From an uncultured Candidatus Peribacteria bacterium (GTDB lineage Bacteria; Patescibacteriota; Gracilibacteria; UBA1369): DNA of 38,680 nucleotides. This document shows, one piece after another, positions 1-6,403 of the stretch (its first letter is position 1; every line of letters starts with the position of its first letter). A program made the translations under genes and the position numbers. The DNA is taken from positions 1 to 38,680 of the forward strand of contig CAYSYL010000002.1 of the NCBI GenBank assembly GCA_964435355.1, written 5' to 3'. The notes under the pieces were generated by a model. It was not told where the DNA came from. It made no database searches and saw only the letters and a program-made list of their open reading frames with translations.

Positions 1-1542
1 ATCAAGGACGGCCCAAGCTATGAGACGGGTTACGGTGGCGCGTAACATGGTTCTTTGAAAAACTTTCGGATCTTTCCCTTCTTTTACGGGGGCTTCCAAG
101 AGTGTTTCCAAGTTATTGGCCCGATCCAGAAGTTTTGCTATGAGAGTTATTTGTCTTTTATCATCTTTGGTGAGAGCGTTGAGTCGTATTAAGAAAGCGT
201 CTAATTTACTATCGGTGTCTTCCGGAAAATCGATGAAAGTTTTTCGTGGAGTTTGAATGTTCTGGGGATTTATTTCTAAGCCAGCATAATACTTCTCTAA
301 ACTTGCTTGATCAACCGGCTCTTCAAGCGTTGGAAGAGTATGGGGATATAGCTTGGATTTTATAAGAATTTCTCTCATTTTTTTTGGACCGGCGATATTT
401 TGTTTCAGAGCGGTATTGAGTTCTTCCTTATGGAAAATGGTATTTTTCGATAAGGCCCTCAATATGCCTCGAAGCCATTGTCTTGTTTTCTGTTTGATGA
501 GAGAAAGAAATTTCTCTCGTATCTCTTTTTTAATTTTGTGAAATCCTGCTTTGATATCCTGACTAAGAGTGCTATCGACGGTGTCGGTTCTTCCCGCCAA
601 AAATTCGTCAATAAGCTCTTCGAGTGGTTCATCCGCGTCTTCATCGATATCGTGCAGTACGGTAGCCGTCACGCCTAATATGAAGTCGCTTTCCATTCGC
701 GATTCCTCGATAATATAAGGGGTAACATCCTGGATGTAGGCCCCCATGACGGCTAACGGGTGTGTCCAATAAGCTACATTCCCTTTTCTTCTGAGACGCC
801 CTTTTTTCTGTTGATGATGAACAGCCTTTGCGATGGTAGCTGCTTGGTGAGTCGTATCAATAAGACGCAAGTATCGGTTTCTTATCATGATTTCATGTCG
901 TCTGGGATGGTCGAGGGCTAAGATAGACTCTCCTCTTGCTGTTTCGGGGCCATTTGATTCTAAAAAATCCGGTTCTCCTTTTTTTTCCAGAAGCATTTCA
1001 TAATAAAGCCGGAGTGCTAAAAGATAGTTTTTATCAGCACGATAAAAATTCCAACGCAATCCTCTTTCTTCCGCTTTCCACATTCCCAGTTCGGTTAAAT
1101 CTCTCTCTTCTCCTTCCATCACGGGCCCATTACTTTGGATTGCCTCAAACCCTTTCTGGAACTTAGTTCTGATGGCAGCTCTCCGTTCGCTCAATTCTAT
1201 CACCACCTTTGGTTCTTCCGAGAAATTATCGTTTACTGGTTCTTGTTGCCATTTTCTCGTGAGAGCTTTGTGGGCTACCTCCCAAGCCATTCGCGCTTTT
1301 AGGACTCCCCCCCATATACTTTTCAATCGCTCTTTATGAGCTTCTGGAATATCTTTTTCTAAAGCATCGAAGCCTAGTTCTGCAGGTATTCTCATGTGCT
1401 CTTTTTCCAAAGCCAAGAAAAAAGCGCTTTCGAGAGTGGCGCACTTCGCAATATCTTGATTGAACGGATATCTTTCACTGAGTTCATGGGCATACTGGAC
1501 TGCTAAGATCCGATCTTCCTGGTTACGACTGAGGGCTTCCAT
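1..1542 (-). CDS. HD-domain protein, RelA/SpoT (Mesh1)-type (p)ppGpp-hydrolase-like; partial, C-terminus runs off the left edge
   Basis: Manual minus-strand translation from ATG at 1542 gives 514 uninterrupted codons down to position 1. It is absent from the ORF track because no stop lies in the window. Motifs: YWTHPLAV, VLHDIDED (HD..ED) and IAKLLDRANNLETL (compare DRLHNMRTL of SpoT hydrolase domains). Confidence 0.6.
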   Translation of the reverse strand, partial: MEALSRNQEDRILAVQYAHELSERYPFNQDIAKCATLESAFFLALEKEHMRIPAELGFDALEKDIPEAHKERLKSIWGGVLKARMAWEVAHKALTRKWQQEPVNDNFSEEPKVVIELSERRAAIRTKFQKGFEAIQSNGPVMEGEERDLTELGMWKAEERGLRWNFYRADKNYLLALRLYYEMLLEKKGEPDFLESNGPETARGESILALDHPRRHEIMIRNRYLRLIDTTHQAATIAKAVHHQQKKGRLRRKGNVAYWTHPLAVMGAYIQDVTPYIIEESRMESDFILGVTATVLHDIDEDADEPLEELIDEFLAGRTDTVDSTLSQDIKAGFHKIKKEIREKFLSLIKQKTRQWLRGILRALSKNTIFHKEELNTALKQNIAGPKKMREILIKSKLYPHTLPTLEEPVDQASLEKYYAGLEINPQNIQTPRKTFIDFPEDTDSKLDAFLIRLNALTKDDKRQITLIAKLLDRANNLETLLEAPVKEGKDPKVFQRTMLRATVTRLIAWAVLD

Positions 1543-1733
1543 TCGATATTATTTAAGGAGGGAGGTGTTTTATGTAAAGACTTTCATAGCACGTCTATAT
1601 TTACTGAAATTATGCCGTCCCTATTTTGTTGGAATAGGGGACTCCTTCAAGATCTAAAATTTGCGTAAAAGGGTTATAGGGAACCGGCGATTAAAAAATA
1701 TCTAGAGTGAGAAGAGCCCACGACGGTATATAT

Positions 1734-1890
1734 CCCATTCGAATGGGCTCATTTTAGAGTTCTTTTTTAGCTTATATATCCCGTATTTAGAAAGCTGCCT
1801 TGGAATGTCGTCATGAGTGTGGACGCCCGGACCCACGAAAAGTTAAACAGCGATGGGATTCTATAGTCGCTTTTTGGTTTTTGCAAATTG
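1734..1890 (+). repeat. Direct repeat R1, left copy of a ~160-nt pair bracketing the Fic module
   Basis: Alignable by eye with 3488-3646. Shared blocks: CCCATTC, TTTTTrGCTTATA, ATTTAGAAAGCTG (1785-1797 vs 3542-3554), GGAATG, GAAAGTTrAACAGCGA (GTTAAAC at 1842-1848 vs GTTGAAC at 3598-3604) and TTTGCAAA. Spacing between blocks is the same in both copies. Confidence 0.6.
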
Positions 1891-1893
1891 TAA

Positions 1894-1971
1894 AGTTTGT
1901 ATCCATCGCTTGACTCAATGTATACAAACTACTATACTTTGTATACATATTTTAAAAGATAGATACAAACT
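1894..1971 (+). promoter_or_regulatory. Sigma70-type promoter (TTGACT-17-TATACT) with four AGTTTGTATAC-type operator half-sites, upstream of fic
   Basis: -35 TTGACT at 1910-1915, 17-nt spacer, -10 TATACT at 1933-1938. Half-sites AGTTTGTAT (1894, forward), TGTATACAAACT (1919-1930, reverse), TTTGTATACA (1938, forward) and GATACAAACT (1962-1971, reverse) form two inverted-repeat pairs around the promoter. Confidence 0.55.
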
Positions 1972-3123
1972 ATGAAGTCAGTTGAAATTGGCATTTATAG
2001 ACAACAAAAAGAGGGTTTTAAAGCTTTTATTCCTAACCCCTTCCCTCCAAAGGAAGGTTTTGACTTTGATGCGGGAATATTAAAGAAAAACGATCAAGCC
2101 ACAAGATTGCTCGGAAAACTTGATGGTATCACAAAACTATTACCTGACGCCGATTTCTTCCTTTTAATGTATTTGCGCAAAGATGCTGCCTCTTCAAGCC
2201 AGATTGAAGGAACACAGGCAACGATGATCGATGCCATCGAAGCGGAAGCGAAAGTAAATACGAAGGTTCCAGCCGACGTCGATGATATTTTACACTATAT
2301 TAACGCTCTCAATTATGGGATGAAACGTGTTACGAAGGATGATTTCCCGATATCACTTCGATTCATAAAAGAACTCCATAAAAAATTGATGGATCAAGCG
2401 CGAGCCACACACTTCTCTGATCCAGGCGAATTCCGTAAAAGCCAGAACTGGATTGGGGGAACAAGGCCGGATAACGCCCGTTTCGTTCCACCTCCCGTTG
2501 AAGAAATGCGGACGGCGCTTAATGAGCTCGAAAAATTCCTGCATGGAAACGATACGACATTAACGCTCATTAAAGCCGGGCTTCTCCACGCTCAATTCGA
2601 AACTATCCATCCTTTTCTCGATGGCAATGGAAGAACCGGGCGAATGCTTATCACCTTCTATTTATGGAAGGAAGGTTTCCTCGAAAAACCTGTTTTATTT
2701 CTATCGTCATTCTTCAAAAAACACCAAGAGTTATACTACGAAAAACTGTCTAATTACCATAATGGCAAGGTTTCGGAGTGGATAGATTTTTTTCTTGATG
2801 GAGTAATAGAAATCGCAAATGAAGCTATAGACATCGTTGGCAAAATAACCGTGCTTCGCGAAAAAGACAGGCAAAAGATTCAAAAACTTGGAACTCGCGC
2901 AGTTGAGAGTGCCTCGGTAATTTTACCAAAATTGTATGCCCAACCTATCGTGAATGTGGCTCTTGTCCAAAAATGGACCGGCTACACCAGAGCAGGAGCG
3001 CAGCGTGTTATCGACCGCTTTATTGAAATGAAAATCCTTTCTCCCAAAGACGAGGACAAGAAATATGGCCAATCGTATGCTTACAAAGAGTATCTTGCCA
3101 TTTTTCAGGATAGTAAAAAGTAA
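1972..3123 (+). CDS. fic: Fic family protein (AMPylase-type), class II with N-terminal inhibitory helix and C-terminal winged-helix
   Basis: Canonical Fic motif HPFLDGNGRTGR (HxFx[DE]GNGRxxR). Inhibitory motif SSQIEG ([ST]xxxE[GN]) lies N-terminal of the core. The C-terminal region ...WTGYTRAGAQRVIDRFIEMKIL looks like a wHTH. Confidence 0.9.
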   Translation: MKSVEIGIYRQQKEGFKAFIPNPFPPKEGFDFDAGILKKNDQATRLLGKLDGITKLLPDADFFLLMYLRKDAASSSQIEGTQATMIDAIEAEAKVNTKVPADVDDILHYINALNYGMKRVTKDDFPISLRFIKELHKKLMDQARATHFSDPGEFRKSQNWIGGTRPDNARFVPPPVEEMRTALNELEKFLHGNDTTLTLIKAGLLHAQFETIHPFLDGNGRTGRMLITFYLWKEGFLEKPVLFLSSFFKKHQELYYEKLSNYHNGKVSEWIDFFLDGVIEIANEAIDIVGKITVLREKDRQKIQKLGTRAVESASVILPKLYAQPIVNVALVQKWTGYTRAGAQRVIDRFIEMKILSPKDEDKKYGQSYAYKEYLAIFQDSKK

Positions 3124-3129
3124 AATCTT

Positions 3130-3438
3130 ATGACACATTCACTGTTGTTAAAAATCGGCAATACTTACAAAGTGTCAGACTCACTAAATCGTGAATATAC
3201 GATAGTATTAGATCTATACAAAAACCATAATCATGAAAGAAAGCCCCTTTATCATTATAATGGAGAAGAAAAAGCGGATGATATAGTTATCACTATTCAA
3301 AACGACGATCCTCCACCTTATCCGTCACCGTATGCAGGAACTATTGAAAAAAAATGGCACGTTATGCGAAAGAACTGCATTTTACATTTTACCGTACTAG
3401 ATAAAACAAGCGTTAAATTGGAGTTAGAAGAAAAATAA
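3130..3438 (+). CDS. Hypothetical small protein (102 aa) co-directional with fic, 6 nt downstream
   Basis: ORF lies immediately after the fic stop. No recognisable motif. Contains a Pro-rich patch, DDPPPYPSPY. Confidence 0.45.
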   Translation: MTHSLLLKIGNTYKVSDSLNREYTIVLDLYKNHNHERKPLYHYNGEEKADDIVITIQNDDPPPYPSPYAGTIEKKWHVMRKNCILHFTVLDKTSVKLELEEK

Positions 3439-3487
3439 ATTACAGGAAATATCAAATTTAAGAAAACAAGCCCAGGCACTTGTGCAA

Positions 3488-3646
3488 CCCCATTCAAGGC
3501 AGTACTTTTTTGGAAGGCGTTTTTGGCTTATAGAAGCTCTGATTTAGAAAGCTGTTTCGGAATGAGCAGTATGGCGCAGACGCACACACCCGTGAAAGTT
3601 GAACAGCGAACTAAATATTAAGATAAGTTTTAGCAATTTGCAAAAC
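3488..3646 (+). repeat. Direct repeat R2, right copy of the pair bracketing the Fic module
   Basis: See R1 (1734-1890): same orientation, same block order and spacing. Confidence 0.6.
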
Positions 3647-3689
3647 TAAGAAAATAATCAAGCTAAGCACTAATTATCAGCCATAACCT

Positions 3690-4460
3690 TTAATCAGTCT
3701 TTGTCTGTTGATAGGATACAATCATTTCCGTAAAACAAAGAATCAAATTATAGGTTTTATCAATCCATTCACTGAAAAATTGATCAATCGGATAATATTT
3801 ATCGGCGTCTCCCCTATCTCCCGTAAGATAATTAGGTATTCTTATTTGATTGTGCACTATTAACCAGGCAGTATGAGAAGGATAGCCCGTCATATCCTTT
3901 TTCATTTGAGAAAAGTTGAATGCCTCAATTCTTGGAACCAAAGAACAGGCAAATGAGTTGTCATGAGAATTTATAGCTGCATACGTACTGATACCACCCA
4001 TGTGATGAACAATATTCCTATAGGGAAATACTTCATTTTTTACCCACTCATGGCAAATGTCCAAACAAGGCGACGGAGTAATACCCTTAGCCTGAAGCAC
4101 CTCTTTAACTTTTTGTATAAAACGCGTTTTTTGTAAAGAAACATCCGCACCCTTAAAGTCTAACCGTAAAAAATGATTAATAGTCGTTGCCATAGCATCA
4201 GCACAAGCCAGGACAGAATTTAAATAATTTTCTAATAAAAAATCGCTATAGATATCGTCTGTTTTCTTGTCTTGTAGTAAGGAATTAACCTTGAGCAATC
4301 TCCAAAATCGCATGGAAAAGTTTCCAATAAATCCACAATCCAACATACGTTCCTGCCGCTCATCTGAATGGCTTAATTCGGTAAAAGGAGGTCGATCAAA
4401 GTATTGTTTCAATTCAGGTAATCTATTGAACCAAAATGATTCACGTAAATAATTTGTCAT
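3690..4460 (-). CDS. Hypothetical protein with HEPN-like Rx4H motif (AbiD/AbiF-like RNxxxHH)
   Basis: 256-aa ORF. FPYRNIVHHMGG resembles the LRNRVAHHE signature of Abi_2/HEPN families. An upstream helix, ACADAMATTINHFL, is consistent with the HEPN first helix. The family assignment comes from memory of motifs only. Confidence 0.45.
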   Translation of the reverse strand: MTNYLRESFWFNRLPELKQYFDRPPFTELSHSDERQERMLDCGFIGNFSMRFWRLLKVNSLLQDKKTDDIYSDFLLENYLNSVLACADAMATTINHFLRLDFKGADVSLQKTRFIQKVKEVLQAKGITPSPCLDICHEWVKNEVFPYRNIVHHMGGISTYAAINSHDNSFACSLVPRIEAFNFSQMKKDMTGYPSHTAWLIVHNQIRIPNYLTGDRGDADKYYPIDQFFSEWIDKTYNLILCFTEMIVSYQQTKTD

Positions 4461-4587
4461 GACAGATTATTAAAGGAGCATAGTTACAAAACAGTTTATG
4501 CAAGCTCTTGGCAGCCGCTTCTCTCATATTTGCTGGTATTGAGTTCGCCATAATTAAGCCGTGGGAATAAGTTTATTGGGCATATAA

Positions 4588-5190
4588 TCACTTACATGAA
4601 TCATATTGTGTATTAGCTTTTTTAGCCAAATTAGATTGTGGGTAAAGCTTATAACATAGTAGCTTCAGCCCATTATCTCGATGCAAAATGAAATTTTCAA
4701 CTTGAGCATTATTACATAAAGGCCCAATAAGATGTTGGAAATTTATTCTGATATCCTCCATGGTAAGTAAGCCAGTTTTACACTGCTGGTATACATCTTC
4801 AAAACCATTTAAGTATAAGCCTAAATAGAATTCATTTTCGATATGTTCTCCATTTTGCAATTTTCGAATAACAAGAGAATTATGATCATCAAATTTATAA
4901 AAATCTTGATAAAGAGTATTAATTACATCAAAGGCTAGCTTTTTCCTCTCTAATTCCAGTTGTAAATTAGAATTATGTACTGTAGCTGAACTTATATCAT
5001 TTGCTGCTTTACTAATATCATTCGCAGTACTACTTAATTGCCAGGTTCCATATGTAAAAATACAGCCAATGAATAAGAGTAATAATTCGCCTATAGCAAT
5101 TTTCTGGTCGATCGACAATTTTCTATATTTATCCCAGCAAACAATAACTAAAATAATGATTATTAAGCCTATAAGTAAAAAGAAATTCAT
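4588..5190 (-). CDS. Small membrane protein with two N-terminal TM helices and a soluble C-terminal domain
   Basis: 200-aa ORF. Hydrophobic stretches FFLLIGLIIIILVIVCW and IAIGELLLLFIGCIFTYGTW. It lies upstream of, and co-directional with, the HEPN-like gene across a 127-nt gap. Confidence 0.5.
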   Translation of the reverse strand: MNFFLLIGLIIIILVIVCWDKYRKLSIDQKIAIGELLLLFIGCIFTYGTWQLSSTANDISKAANDISSATVHNSNLQLELERKKLAFDVINTLYQDFYKFDDHNSLVIRKLQNGEHIENEFYLGLYLNGFEDVYQQCKTGLLTMEDIRINFQHLIGPLCNNAQVENFILHRDNGLKLLCYKLYPQSNLAKKANTQYDSCK

Positions 5191-5261
5191 TCGGTATATG
5201 AAACAAAATATTTATTTTTCCATCAGTGATAAAGATATAAAAGCTAGTGAAGTATTGGCAG

Positions 5262-6053
5262 TTATACGTCTTCCAAACTCCTAGCAATCATCTCCGCAGC
5301 CTTAGCTCGTGATAACCCTTCCGTCGGCATACTACCGTCAATATCGATGCCCAAGGATTTCGCTTTATCAATATACGTTTCATACCAAACAGCAGTTTGC
5401 CCATCAGGCTTTAGGCCAAATGTTTCCAGAGCGATCTTTAAAGCTTCGACATAATTCACCTCCTGAACTGGTTTGAAAGTACCATCAGCATATCCTCCAA
5501 CAAACCCCTGCGCCTTCGCAAAACAAACGGGTTTGGTATACCACTGATCTTTTTGAATGTCCTTAAAACAGTTTTGATTATAGCTGTCATCAATTGTCGG
5601 ATACTTAGCTCCCACTACTATTTTTAAAAGCTCAGCACGGTTTAAAATCCTGAAAGGCTGATAGGTACCGTCGGGATACCCGGAAATGATATTTTTCTCT
5701 TTCAAAAGTTCAATAGAAGATTCGAAAGGAGTAGTACTATCAACGTCACTAAAAACGGATGATGGCATCGAAGGCTCAGGTGGTACAACAGGTTCCGGAG
5801 CAGGTGGTTGAATCTCGAGCTCGGAAGGAGAACCGGCGCACATCACCATCGAAGAGTAAGAAACCGAACTATTTTCCCAACCGTCCTTGCATATAACGCT
5901 ACCGTCGCTATCTGCACCCGCGCTACAATCCACTCCTCCATGCCCAGAACAGGCGCCAGAAGTTGCAAATGCAAAAGGAATAATAAAAGATACGCTCACA
6001 AAAAGCGCCACGGCTGTTAAAAGGGAAAATGGTTTCTTCATATAGTGCAACAA
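5262..6053 (-). CDS. Secreted SLH-domain (S-layer homology) protein
   Basis: N-terminal signal/TM segment and a Cys-rich and Pro-rich linker. Repeated SLH signatures follow: FSDVD...ISGYPDGTYQP...NRAELLKIVV and FKDIQKDQWY...GGYADGTFKP. Confidence 0.8.
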   Translation of the reverse strand: MLHYMKKPFSLLTAVALFVSVSFIIPFAFATSGACSGHGGVDCSAGADSDGSVICKDGWENSSVSYSSMVMCAGSPSELEIQPPAPEPVVPPEPSMPSSVFSDVDSTTPFESSIELLKEKNIISGYPDGTYQPFRILNRAELLKIVVGAKYPTIDDSYNQNCFKDIQKDQWYTKPVCFAKAQGFVGGYADGTFKPVQEVNYVEALKIALETFGLKPDGQTAVWYETYIDKAKSLGIDIDGSMPTEGLSRAKAAEMIARSLEDV

Positions 6054-6326
6054 AAATATTAAAATTCTCTAAAATATTAATCTAACAAGATTTCCTTCAA
6101 AAGAAGGATGCGATGACAAAAAGTAGAAATGATGAATAAAAACTTGTCGAATTTGAAGTATAATTAAGGCAACTTTAATTACTTCAATGAAAAGCGTTCG
6201 AAACAAATGGCATTGGCCAGAGCTAAAACTGGAATTCTTTAGATCAAACTTTGCCGAAGTAAAAGGATTTTTTCAGGAACAATACGACGCTCCAGAGGCT
6301 CTTAAAGAATCCAGGCGGGGATATAC

Positions 6327-6403
6327 TGGTCGGGGTACTGGGACTTGAACCCAGGGCCTCACCCACCCCATGGGTGCGCGCTAGCCAACTGCGCCATACC
6401 CCG
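6327..6403 (-). tRNA. tRNA-Pro (anticodon GGG), CCA encoded
   Basis: Manual cloverleaf on the minus strand: acceptor CGGGGTA/TACCCCG, D arm GCGC-AGTTGGCTA-GCGC, anticodon stem CACCC/GGGTG with loop AT-GGG-GT, T arm CTGGG-TTCAAGT-CCCAG, discriminator A plus CCA. Confidence 0.85.

Follow-up and report, generated by a model that had tools for sequence, protein, structure and literature searches.

The window studied here is a stretch of 38,680 nucleotides (nt) from an uncultured Candidatus Peribacteria bacterium (contig CAYSYL010000002.1, positions 1 to 38,680). Near its left end, a predicted SoFic-type defence gene (fic) and a small open reading frame (ORF) of 102 amino acids (aa), ORF102, are enclosed by two look-alike stretches, R1 upstream (1716-1894, + strand) and R2 downstream (3469-3646, + strand); R stands below for either copy. 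What are these repeats, and how did they come to bracket a defence gene? We propose, with a probability of about 0.6, that R1 and R2 are decayed attachment (att)-type distal junctions of tRNA-integrating islands, left by two accreted units and now inactive. Profile searches show R2 to be a member of a family of sequences, each made of the 3' half of a tRNA-Thr followed by a conserved arm, and R1 is homologous to R2. The proposal would account for a lone toxin-like defence gene lying between two similar non-coding stretches, and it ties the window to a family of tRNA-targeting islands whose junction occurs in at least 15 other sampled genomes from six families of the order. Judged from these comparisons, the repeats themselves would be worn tRNA-island junctions of a known kind, and the defence gene that they flank is known as well; of greater interest is the family brought to light along the way, which is widespread in the order and, in some genomes, arranged in arrays whose units are very small.

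The repeat pair around fic

R1 and R2 lie about 1756 nt apart, both on the + strand, with fic (1972-3123) and ORF102 (3130-3438) between them, which is the arrangement described by an earlier annotation made from the letters alone (the sequence-only reading). That annotation had called the two stretches direct repeats, and a formal local alignment bears it out: R1 1764-1854 and R2 3519-3609 are 72% identical, with a score of 49 against 17.4 +/- 2.3 (maximum 27) in 1000 dinucleotide shuffles. Chance similarity is ruled out by these shuffles, and elsewhere in the window the runner-up among 226-nt segments reaches a score of 28-34. The right tails (1855-1895 and 3610-3652) are alike independently of the aligned part (p = 0.001), and the left parts (1715-1763 and 3468-3518) are collinear and, taken alone, not significant (p = 0.12). 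The offsets between corresponding blocks are collinear too, at 1754-1758 nt. Among these blocks are ATTTAGAAAGCTG at 1785-1797 and 3542-3554, followed 4 nt downstream by GGAATG in both repeats, a GAAAGTT[A/G]AACAGCGA block present in both, the heptamers GTTAAAC (1842-1848) and GTTGAAC (3598-3604), and TTTGCAAA at 1880-1887 in R1 and 3638-3645 in R2. All the blocks quoted in the sequence-only reading, its GTTRRRY-type heptamers included, lie where it had placed them. R1 aligns to R2 and is collinear with the family described below in one of our alignments (A4). It can be divided into a possible decayed remnant of a tRNA core, with CCCAT, at about 1716-1745, an arm-like part at about 1746-1854, and a tail that ends in TTTGCAAATTGTAAAG and abuts the left edge of the fic cassette. 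R2 is the copy that the family models recognise, and its tRNA part is not recognisable.

Do the repeats encode anything? Their mismatches fall 7/4/8 over the three codon positions, which amounts to no phase, and stop codons occur in every frame of R1, so that both copies look non-coding, as had been claimed from the letters. The frame of ORF102, past its TAA stop, stays open for about 60 further codons through R2 (3436-3621); given that R has no codon-phase signal, this is probably a product of chance. Searches of the 1.42-Mb genome by blastn and nhmmer return just two copies of R, and blastn finds none in 40 relatives, so R is not a widespread intergenic repeat, a possibility that the sequence-only reading had raised against itself.

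A family of tRNA-half and arm junctions in related genomes

The link between R and island junctions comes from two relatives, numbered G020 and G187 in our genome set. The Fic protein of G020 is 88% identical to that of the window (80% in DNA), and its gene, together with one ORF, lies between perfect 51-nt repeats of the 3' half of tRNA-Thr(GGU), with the intact tRNA on the far side. G187 has a repeat of about 134 nt (150-165 nt by profile match) that occurs at least four times, always in the same orientation, with single genes, including fic, between its copies; it was a third copy of the flanking repeat, noticed in this genome, that led to the family. The start of the G187 repeat is homologous to the DNA just inside the 51-nt repeat of G020 (score 39 versus a null of 16). 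When a profile was made of four sequences from these two genomes, with none from the window, its top match in the window was R2, at 3490-3542 (E = 0.0019).

We next scanned 150 genomes of the order with a covariance model based on sequence only; 14 further genomes, from six families, proved to contain strong members (E from 1e-8 to 1e-4). Every member combines the 3' part of tRNA-Thr(GGU), reaching from the T arm to the anticodon loop (..CCTTACCATG), with a conserved arm of about 110 nt that follows it and has the blocks GAAGGgcGTTTTTsGCT.., TAGAG.. and GAGGGGCACACCCAGTG. Several of the genomes hold 2-7 junction copies spaced 0.6-1.5 kb apart. A hidden Markov model (HMM) of the family, built from 20 members of 14 other genomes of the same order and again without any sequence of the window, has R2 (3490-3592) as its best match in the window, with E = 1.3e-6, or E = 4.9e-5 when the whole genome is searched. 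These profile matches show that R2 belongs to the family. In the other direction, none of 80 metagenomic fic loci is matched by a profile of R at E <= 1, and G020 is matched weakly.

How are the family members arranged? The ten loci that were mapped share one architecture, in which an intact tRNA-Thr(GGU) is followed by accessory genes and, at the far end, by at least one unit of tRNA half plus arm. The far-end units lie on the strand opposite to the intact tRNA-Thr with the arm toward the cargo (G020, G078, G117, G145, G094 and G022). A tyrosine integrase (PF00589) adjoins the tRNA in G117 and G145, and G117 has two PF00589 genes beside the tRNA, 5.6-8 kb from the units; no integrase was seen near the arrays of G020, G078, G128 and G187. 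Two to five copies are often seen, and in G128, G117, G078 and G187 successive units lie 0.6-1.5 kb apart, separated by one or two genes. Junctions of the attR type, each composed of a P arm and a core, are expected to be laid out in this way. Folding of 16 family sequences with RNAalifold gave no consensus structure and no covariation in the arm (-0.1 kcal/mol, 2 pairs), and an arm that conserves no RNA structure fits DNA bound by a protein rather than an RNA gene. In practical terms, the junction sequence can serve as a marker for the slots of accessory and defence genes in these small and poorly studied genomes.

One further locus deserves mention in its own right. In G022 (L164, 9410-9677) an intact tRNA-Thr(GGU) is followed, 55 nt on, by a lone unit of tRNA half and arm without cargo. 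This could be a nearly empty island, either minimal or emptied, and could serve as the reference 'empty' state for the family.

R1 and R2 as probable worn att-type junctions

Islands that tyrosine integrases insert at tRNA genes are bounded by attL and attR repeats, and tandem accretion of such islands, as well as integrase-less derivatives (cis-mobilizable elements, CIMEs), are familiar from the ICESt1/ICESt3 literature. By analogy, a junction of the family would consist of the displaced 3' core of the tRNA and a P-type arm contributed by the element, and would thus be attR-like. In the relatives it marks the far end of an island whose near end is the intact tRNA-Thr(GGU), sometimes accompanied by the tyrosine integrase. 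Further insertions at the same tRNA, or integrase-less pieces that persist there, would repeat the junction in one orientation, and repeated junctions would cut the accessory DNA into small units. Read leftward from tRNA-Pro(GGG) (6403 to 6327), this part of the window would then comprise a cargo B (the genes for an SLH protein, a 200-aa protein and a 256-aa protein), R2, a cargo A (ORF102 and the SoFic cassette), R1, and a flank with a gene for a 514-aa protein. R1 and R2 may have arisen by two site-specific integrations, or by one integration beside an older scar, and the integrase responsible would since have been lost or would act from elsewhere.

The window shares with known tRNA islands the same-orientation direct repeats that bound accessory DNA beside a tRNA. 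The family members share more: their repeat comprises the 3' part of the tRNA, from the anticodon loop onward, together with neighbouring DNA of the element, some of them have the integrase beside the tRNA, and repeated junctions separate integrase-less units. The orientation of R1 and R2 relative to tRNA-Pro(GGG) is that of the family, with the possible core remnant at the left of each copy, the arm to its right and, beyond the arm, the tRNA on the opposite strand. It is this orientation, together with the match of R2 to the family and the lack of an integrase on the contig, that leads us to read R1 and R2 as decayed att-type junctions. Of the options that the sequence-only reading had offered for the repeats (a duplicated att site, a mobile cassette or a structured RNA pair), the duplicated att site or mobile cassette fits best, now that R2 falls within a family that bounds tRNA-integrated islands. 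Differences from known islands are that the core in the window is unrecognisable, that the tRNA is Pro(GGG) and not Thr(GGU), that there is no integrase and that identity between the copies is no more than 72%; moreover, the units of some relatives are unusually small, with one gene or 0.6-1.5 kb each. Given this identity of the copies and the unrecognisable core, we infer that the sites are relics that are no longer active, and nothing points to a present function of the repeats in this window.

Is there any trace left of the tRNA core? Both R copies have CCCAT at the column of the anticodon loop, as tRNA-Pro(GGG) does, where all 14 aligned members of the tRNA-Thr type have ACCAT or ACCAA. 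This agreement with tRNA-Pro(GGG) comes down to a single nucleotide, and the rest of the core is not statistically recognisable; what remains of it in R1 and R2 is CCCAT and a CCCA(G/C)G block.

Several observations weigh against decayed att-type junctions. The family HMM matches R1 at the homologous place (1757-1813) with E = 1.2, a value at which the model alone misses it, so that the membership of R1 rests on its homology to R2. Comparison of the tRNA-derived core with tRNA-Pro(GGG) gives p = 0.09 and 0.79 for the two copies, and when R is compared with the tRNAs and the tmRNA of the same genome, there is no significant match and no tRNA stands out. The adjacent tRNA is Pro(GGG), whereas every clear member of the family uses Thr(GGU). 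A search for tyrosine recombinases (PF00589) on the contig of the window gives no match. A 19-base pattern taken from R has 2 matches in a collection of genome contigs, both chance matches inside coding sequence, a 24-base two-block pattern has 0 matches in a collection of metagenome contigs, and exact-protein look-ups with four proteins of the window found no record. Finally, locus-specific direct repeats flank SoFic cassettes elsewhere without the att family, and the duplication of R may for that reason have had a different origin.

The very small units of some relatives also raise the idea of an integrase-driven exchange of cassettes that would be distinct from integrons. The units of tRNA half plus arm might, instead of being mere scars, still function in recombination, as the sites of an integron-like cassette system in this candidate-phylum order, which we consider doubtful. 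In such a system a tyrosine integrase beside tRNA-Thr or tRNA-Pro would capture and shuffle single-gene defence cassettes with their own promoters, SoFic for example, each bounded by one unit, a step for which we see an equally low likelihood; and R1 and R2 would be an old, inactivated example with two cassettes, which is just as tentative. The likeness to integron cassette arrays and to clusters of attC sites lacking integron-integrases (CALINs) lies in a same-orientation repeat between small unrelated accessory units with no recombinase nearby, and in the arrays of 3-5 junctions seen in relatives. Such arrays differ in that the present repeat has no attC hairpin and is composed of a tRNA half and an arm, and in that the cassettes here carry their own promoters.

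A rival reading: possible insertion with long target duplication

The main rival that remains for R1 and R2 is an insertion with long target duplication, a mode described for restriction-modification units (Nobusato et al. 2000, in the account that Furuta et al. 2010, PMC2853133, give of it). Here the fic segment, with or without ORF102, would have been inserted without a dedicated recombinase, and R would be local DNA, or flanking DNA that travelled along, duplicated in the process, for instance by single-crossover integration of a circle carrying the cassette and R. We hold this to be unlikely for the window, and it nevertheless has much in its favour at other fic loci. Among 90 fic loci tested for flanking repeats (80 metagenomic loci, fetched with the Fic protein, belong to the fic set), 15 carry direct repeats on either side of fic that score beyond the 99th percentile of the cross-locus controls, and none of 109 shifted-window pairs of equal spacing that do not span fic exceeds that percentile. 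These repeats, of 14-290 nt, are locus-specific and often lie exactly at the cassette edges; they are made up of tRNA sequence or of the terminal part of a neighbouring gene, either the 5' end of an hsdR downstream or the 3' end of a gene upstream. R1 likewise ends at the start of the cassette.

The coding repeats at these loci differ mostly at synonymous positions. Hand counts in the hsdR frame give synonymous to non-synonymous ratios of 7:2 at locus L076 and 7:4 at L096, and further loci give 4:4 (L062), 3:2 (L095) and about 14:6 (L114); an automated count that picks the best of six frames is biased, and only the real frames of the flanking genes were used. Mostly synonymous differences suggest diverged alleles, as if the second copy were foreign, rather than a fresh duplicate that has decayed. 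Measured by the criteria used for restriction-modification genes (Furuta et al. 2010, PMC2853133), the window resembles this mode in having a defence gene without a mobility gene of its own and direct repeats of more than 30 bp found nowhere else in the genome, and many other SoFic loci fit the pattern. What separates the window from it is R2, which is homologous to sequences at island ends in other genomes and other families. This is unexpected of a duplicated local target and suggests that R is a repeat of the element type rather than the target type. In addition, ORF102 stands between the right edge of the cassette and R2, so that these two do not touch, and the longest block that is identical in R1 and R2 has just 13 nt.

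Regulatory, coding and integron readings

Could R be a duplicated piece of regulatory DNA or a pair of small RNAs, with a promoter and a leader on the minus strand? In this proposal the 514-aa gene would be driven from R1, and R2 would give rise to an RNA antisense to ORF102 and fic. Both copies do carry minus-strand hexamers with an equal spacing of 17 nt (TTGCAA-17-TAGAAT in R1 and TTGCAA-17-TAATAT in R2), and the minus strand of R2 folds somewhat better than its shuffles (z = -2.05). Such promoter-like matches are no commoner than in shuffled sequence, however (9 found, 7.3 expected), the other three folds have z near 0 (-0.02, -0.10 and 0.04), Rfam reports tRNAs only, with no family match to R, and the family alignment has neither consensus structure nor covariation. 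We therefore regard a regulatory or RNA function as improbable, and the structured non-coding RNA pair that had been suggested from the letters does not hold up. The promoter-like sites themselves lie on the minus strand at 1858-1887 and 3617-3645; that of R1 faces the 514-aa gene across a leader of about 300 nt, and transcription from that of R2 would run antisense into ORF102 and fic. A publication on a regulator of the RptR type is not relevant here.

It is very improbable that R represents decayed coding remnants, such as duplicated 3' ends of hsdS from a type I restriction locus. Type I restriction loci are the commonest home of this fic cassette, and the tail of R1 (GCTTTTTGG..TTTTTGCAAATTGTAA) resembles the last 20 nt or so (..GCTTTTGCAGGGAAATTGTAA) of the hsdS that precedes fic in many loci. 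However, neither 1501-3900 (E <= 50) nor the genome as a whole contains a match to a DNA profile of 14 hsdS 3' ends, and the missing codon phase and the stops in every frame of R1 also speak against it.

Least credible of all is the idea that R1 and R2 are integron-type attC sites with GTTRRRY cores that bound a gene cassette: GTTAAAC and GTTGAAC do occupy equivalent positions in the two copies, but so degenerate a 7-mer is expected by chance in AT-rich DNA, neither an inverse core nor an imperfect-palindrome hairpin is seen (fold z about 0), and the contig encodes no tyrosine recombinase. The repeat of the cassette array at 31.6-38.2 kb of the window is unrelated to R, as a profile of the array repeat has no match in it, and the resemblance of the R tails to that array, which the sequence-only reading had pointed out, is not upheld.

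The cargo: a SoFic cassette and ORF102

SoFic is a single-gene anti-phage system (Millman et al. 2022 preprint, 10.1101/2022.05.11.491447). The fic gene of the window (1972-3123, + strand) encodes a class II Fic protein of 383 aa with the Pfam domains Fic_N and Fic, and matches the SoFic model of PADLOC at 2.2e-111 over model positions 5-359 of 361, that is, over its full length. Its translation carries the catalytic HPFLDGNGRTGR and the inhibitory SSQIEG motif, and on these grounds the cargo gene is predicted to be a SoFic-type defence gene, here known from sequence. Homologues of 73-88% identity are scattered patchily over other genera and families of the order.

A promoter/operator region lies just upstream (1891-1971, + strand), where a promoter scan finds TTGACT-17-TATACT amid AGTTTGTATAC / GTATACAAAC half-sites. 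A region of this kind, of 80-95 nt, is common to all Fic homologues of 73-88% identity and is kept in 10 of 10 close fic loci, so that the promoter of its own which had been ascribed to fic is found to be conserved, as the left end of the SoFic cassette. When the window is compared with other fic loci by blastn, about 70 of these loci show homology from 1888-1897 onward, and the right end falls at 3104-3134 in 58 of 91 long alignments; no alignment lies outside the interval so bounded. These limits define a conserved cassette at about 1891-3123, and R1 ends exactly at its start.

Cassettes of promoter/operator and gene, about 1.25 kb long and 88-96% identical in DNA, occur in unrelated contexts (L056-L135, L030-L048), and the homology among them stops within about 25 nt of each edge. 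Outside restriction loci they keep edge stubs of 13-60 nt, derived from the start of hsdR (ATGAACGA[AG]..) or the end of hsdS (..AFAGKL*). Such stubs are found in L114 (about 5156-5180), just past the fic stop in L075, L063, L082, L112 and L102, just upstream of the cassette in L096/L098, and upstream in L057. About 20 loci have the arrangement hsdS-fic-hsdR, and the stubs suggest that the cassettes derive from this common arrangement.

ORF102 (3130-3438, + strand) runs in the same direction as fic and starts 7 nt past its stop. It belongs to a small conserved family of about 100 aa with the pattern ..CDLFKDHDHKNKPIYYYHD..DD.VATVEGND.. (window 3130-3438, L022-L028) and has no match in Pfam or PADLOC. 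Does it work together with fic? EcSofic of E. coli is reported to have a 47-aa antitoxin, AS1, encoded downstream (PMC12249575), and a small ORF after fic is what the window has as well. ORF102 differs in being twice the size of AS1 and in being unlinked to fic elsewhere: it is absent from all of 98 other fic loci, and of 200 other genomes of the order 12 hold homologues of it, whose surroundings vary. In genomes that have both a homologue of ORF102 and fic, the best hits lie on different contigs, and no fic ORF was seen in the seven fetched loci of ORF102 homologues. ORF102 as a conserved partner of Fic is thereby ruled out, and the module of fic plus the 102-aa ORF, as the sequence-only reading had drawn it, comes apart into a conserved cassette and a separate neighbour.

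The island setting

The tRNA-Pro(GGG) gene at 6327-6403 (- strand; ARAGORN, Rfam) is presumed to be the proximal anchor of the island. Its strand is opposite to that of R, as is that of the intact tRNA-Thr in the family (compared with G020, G078 and G117), which agrees with the earlier placing of the island beside this tRNA. No partial copy of tRNA-Pro(GGG) reaches significance in 1-6290, and the tRNA-Thr(GGU) of this genome sits on another contig. Between R2 and the tRNA lies a second accessory block (3690-6053, - strand) with genes for a 256-aa orphan, a 200-aa membrane protein and a 263-aa protein with an SLH domain, this domain being the only Pfam match in the block. No homologue of the 256-aa protein was found in 200 genomes of the order. 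Both flanking genes, for the 514-aa and the 256-aa proteins, have few or no homologues, none of them in synteny.

On the other side, left of R1, the gene for the 514-aa protein (window 1-1542) is patchy: only 3 of the 35 genomes of the family have a homologue, at 37-40% identity. Because of this patchiness the true edge of the accessory region may lie beyond the end of the contig, and this gene may be core or accessory DNA. Just upstream of the start of the 514-aa gene and opposite to it, at 1553-1578 on the + strand, there is a strong Shine-Dalgarno-like sequence, AAGGAGGGAGG, and 5 nt beyond it stands ATG-TAA, in which a stop codon comes immediately after the start codon.

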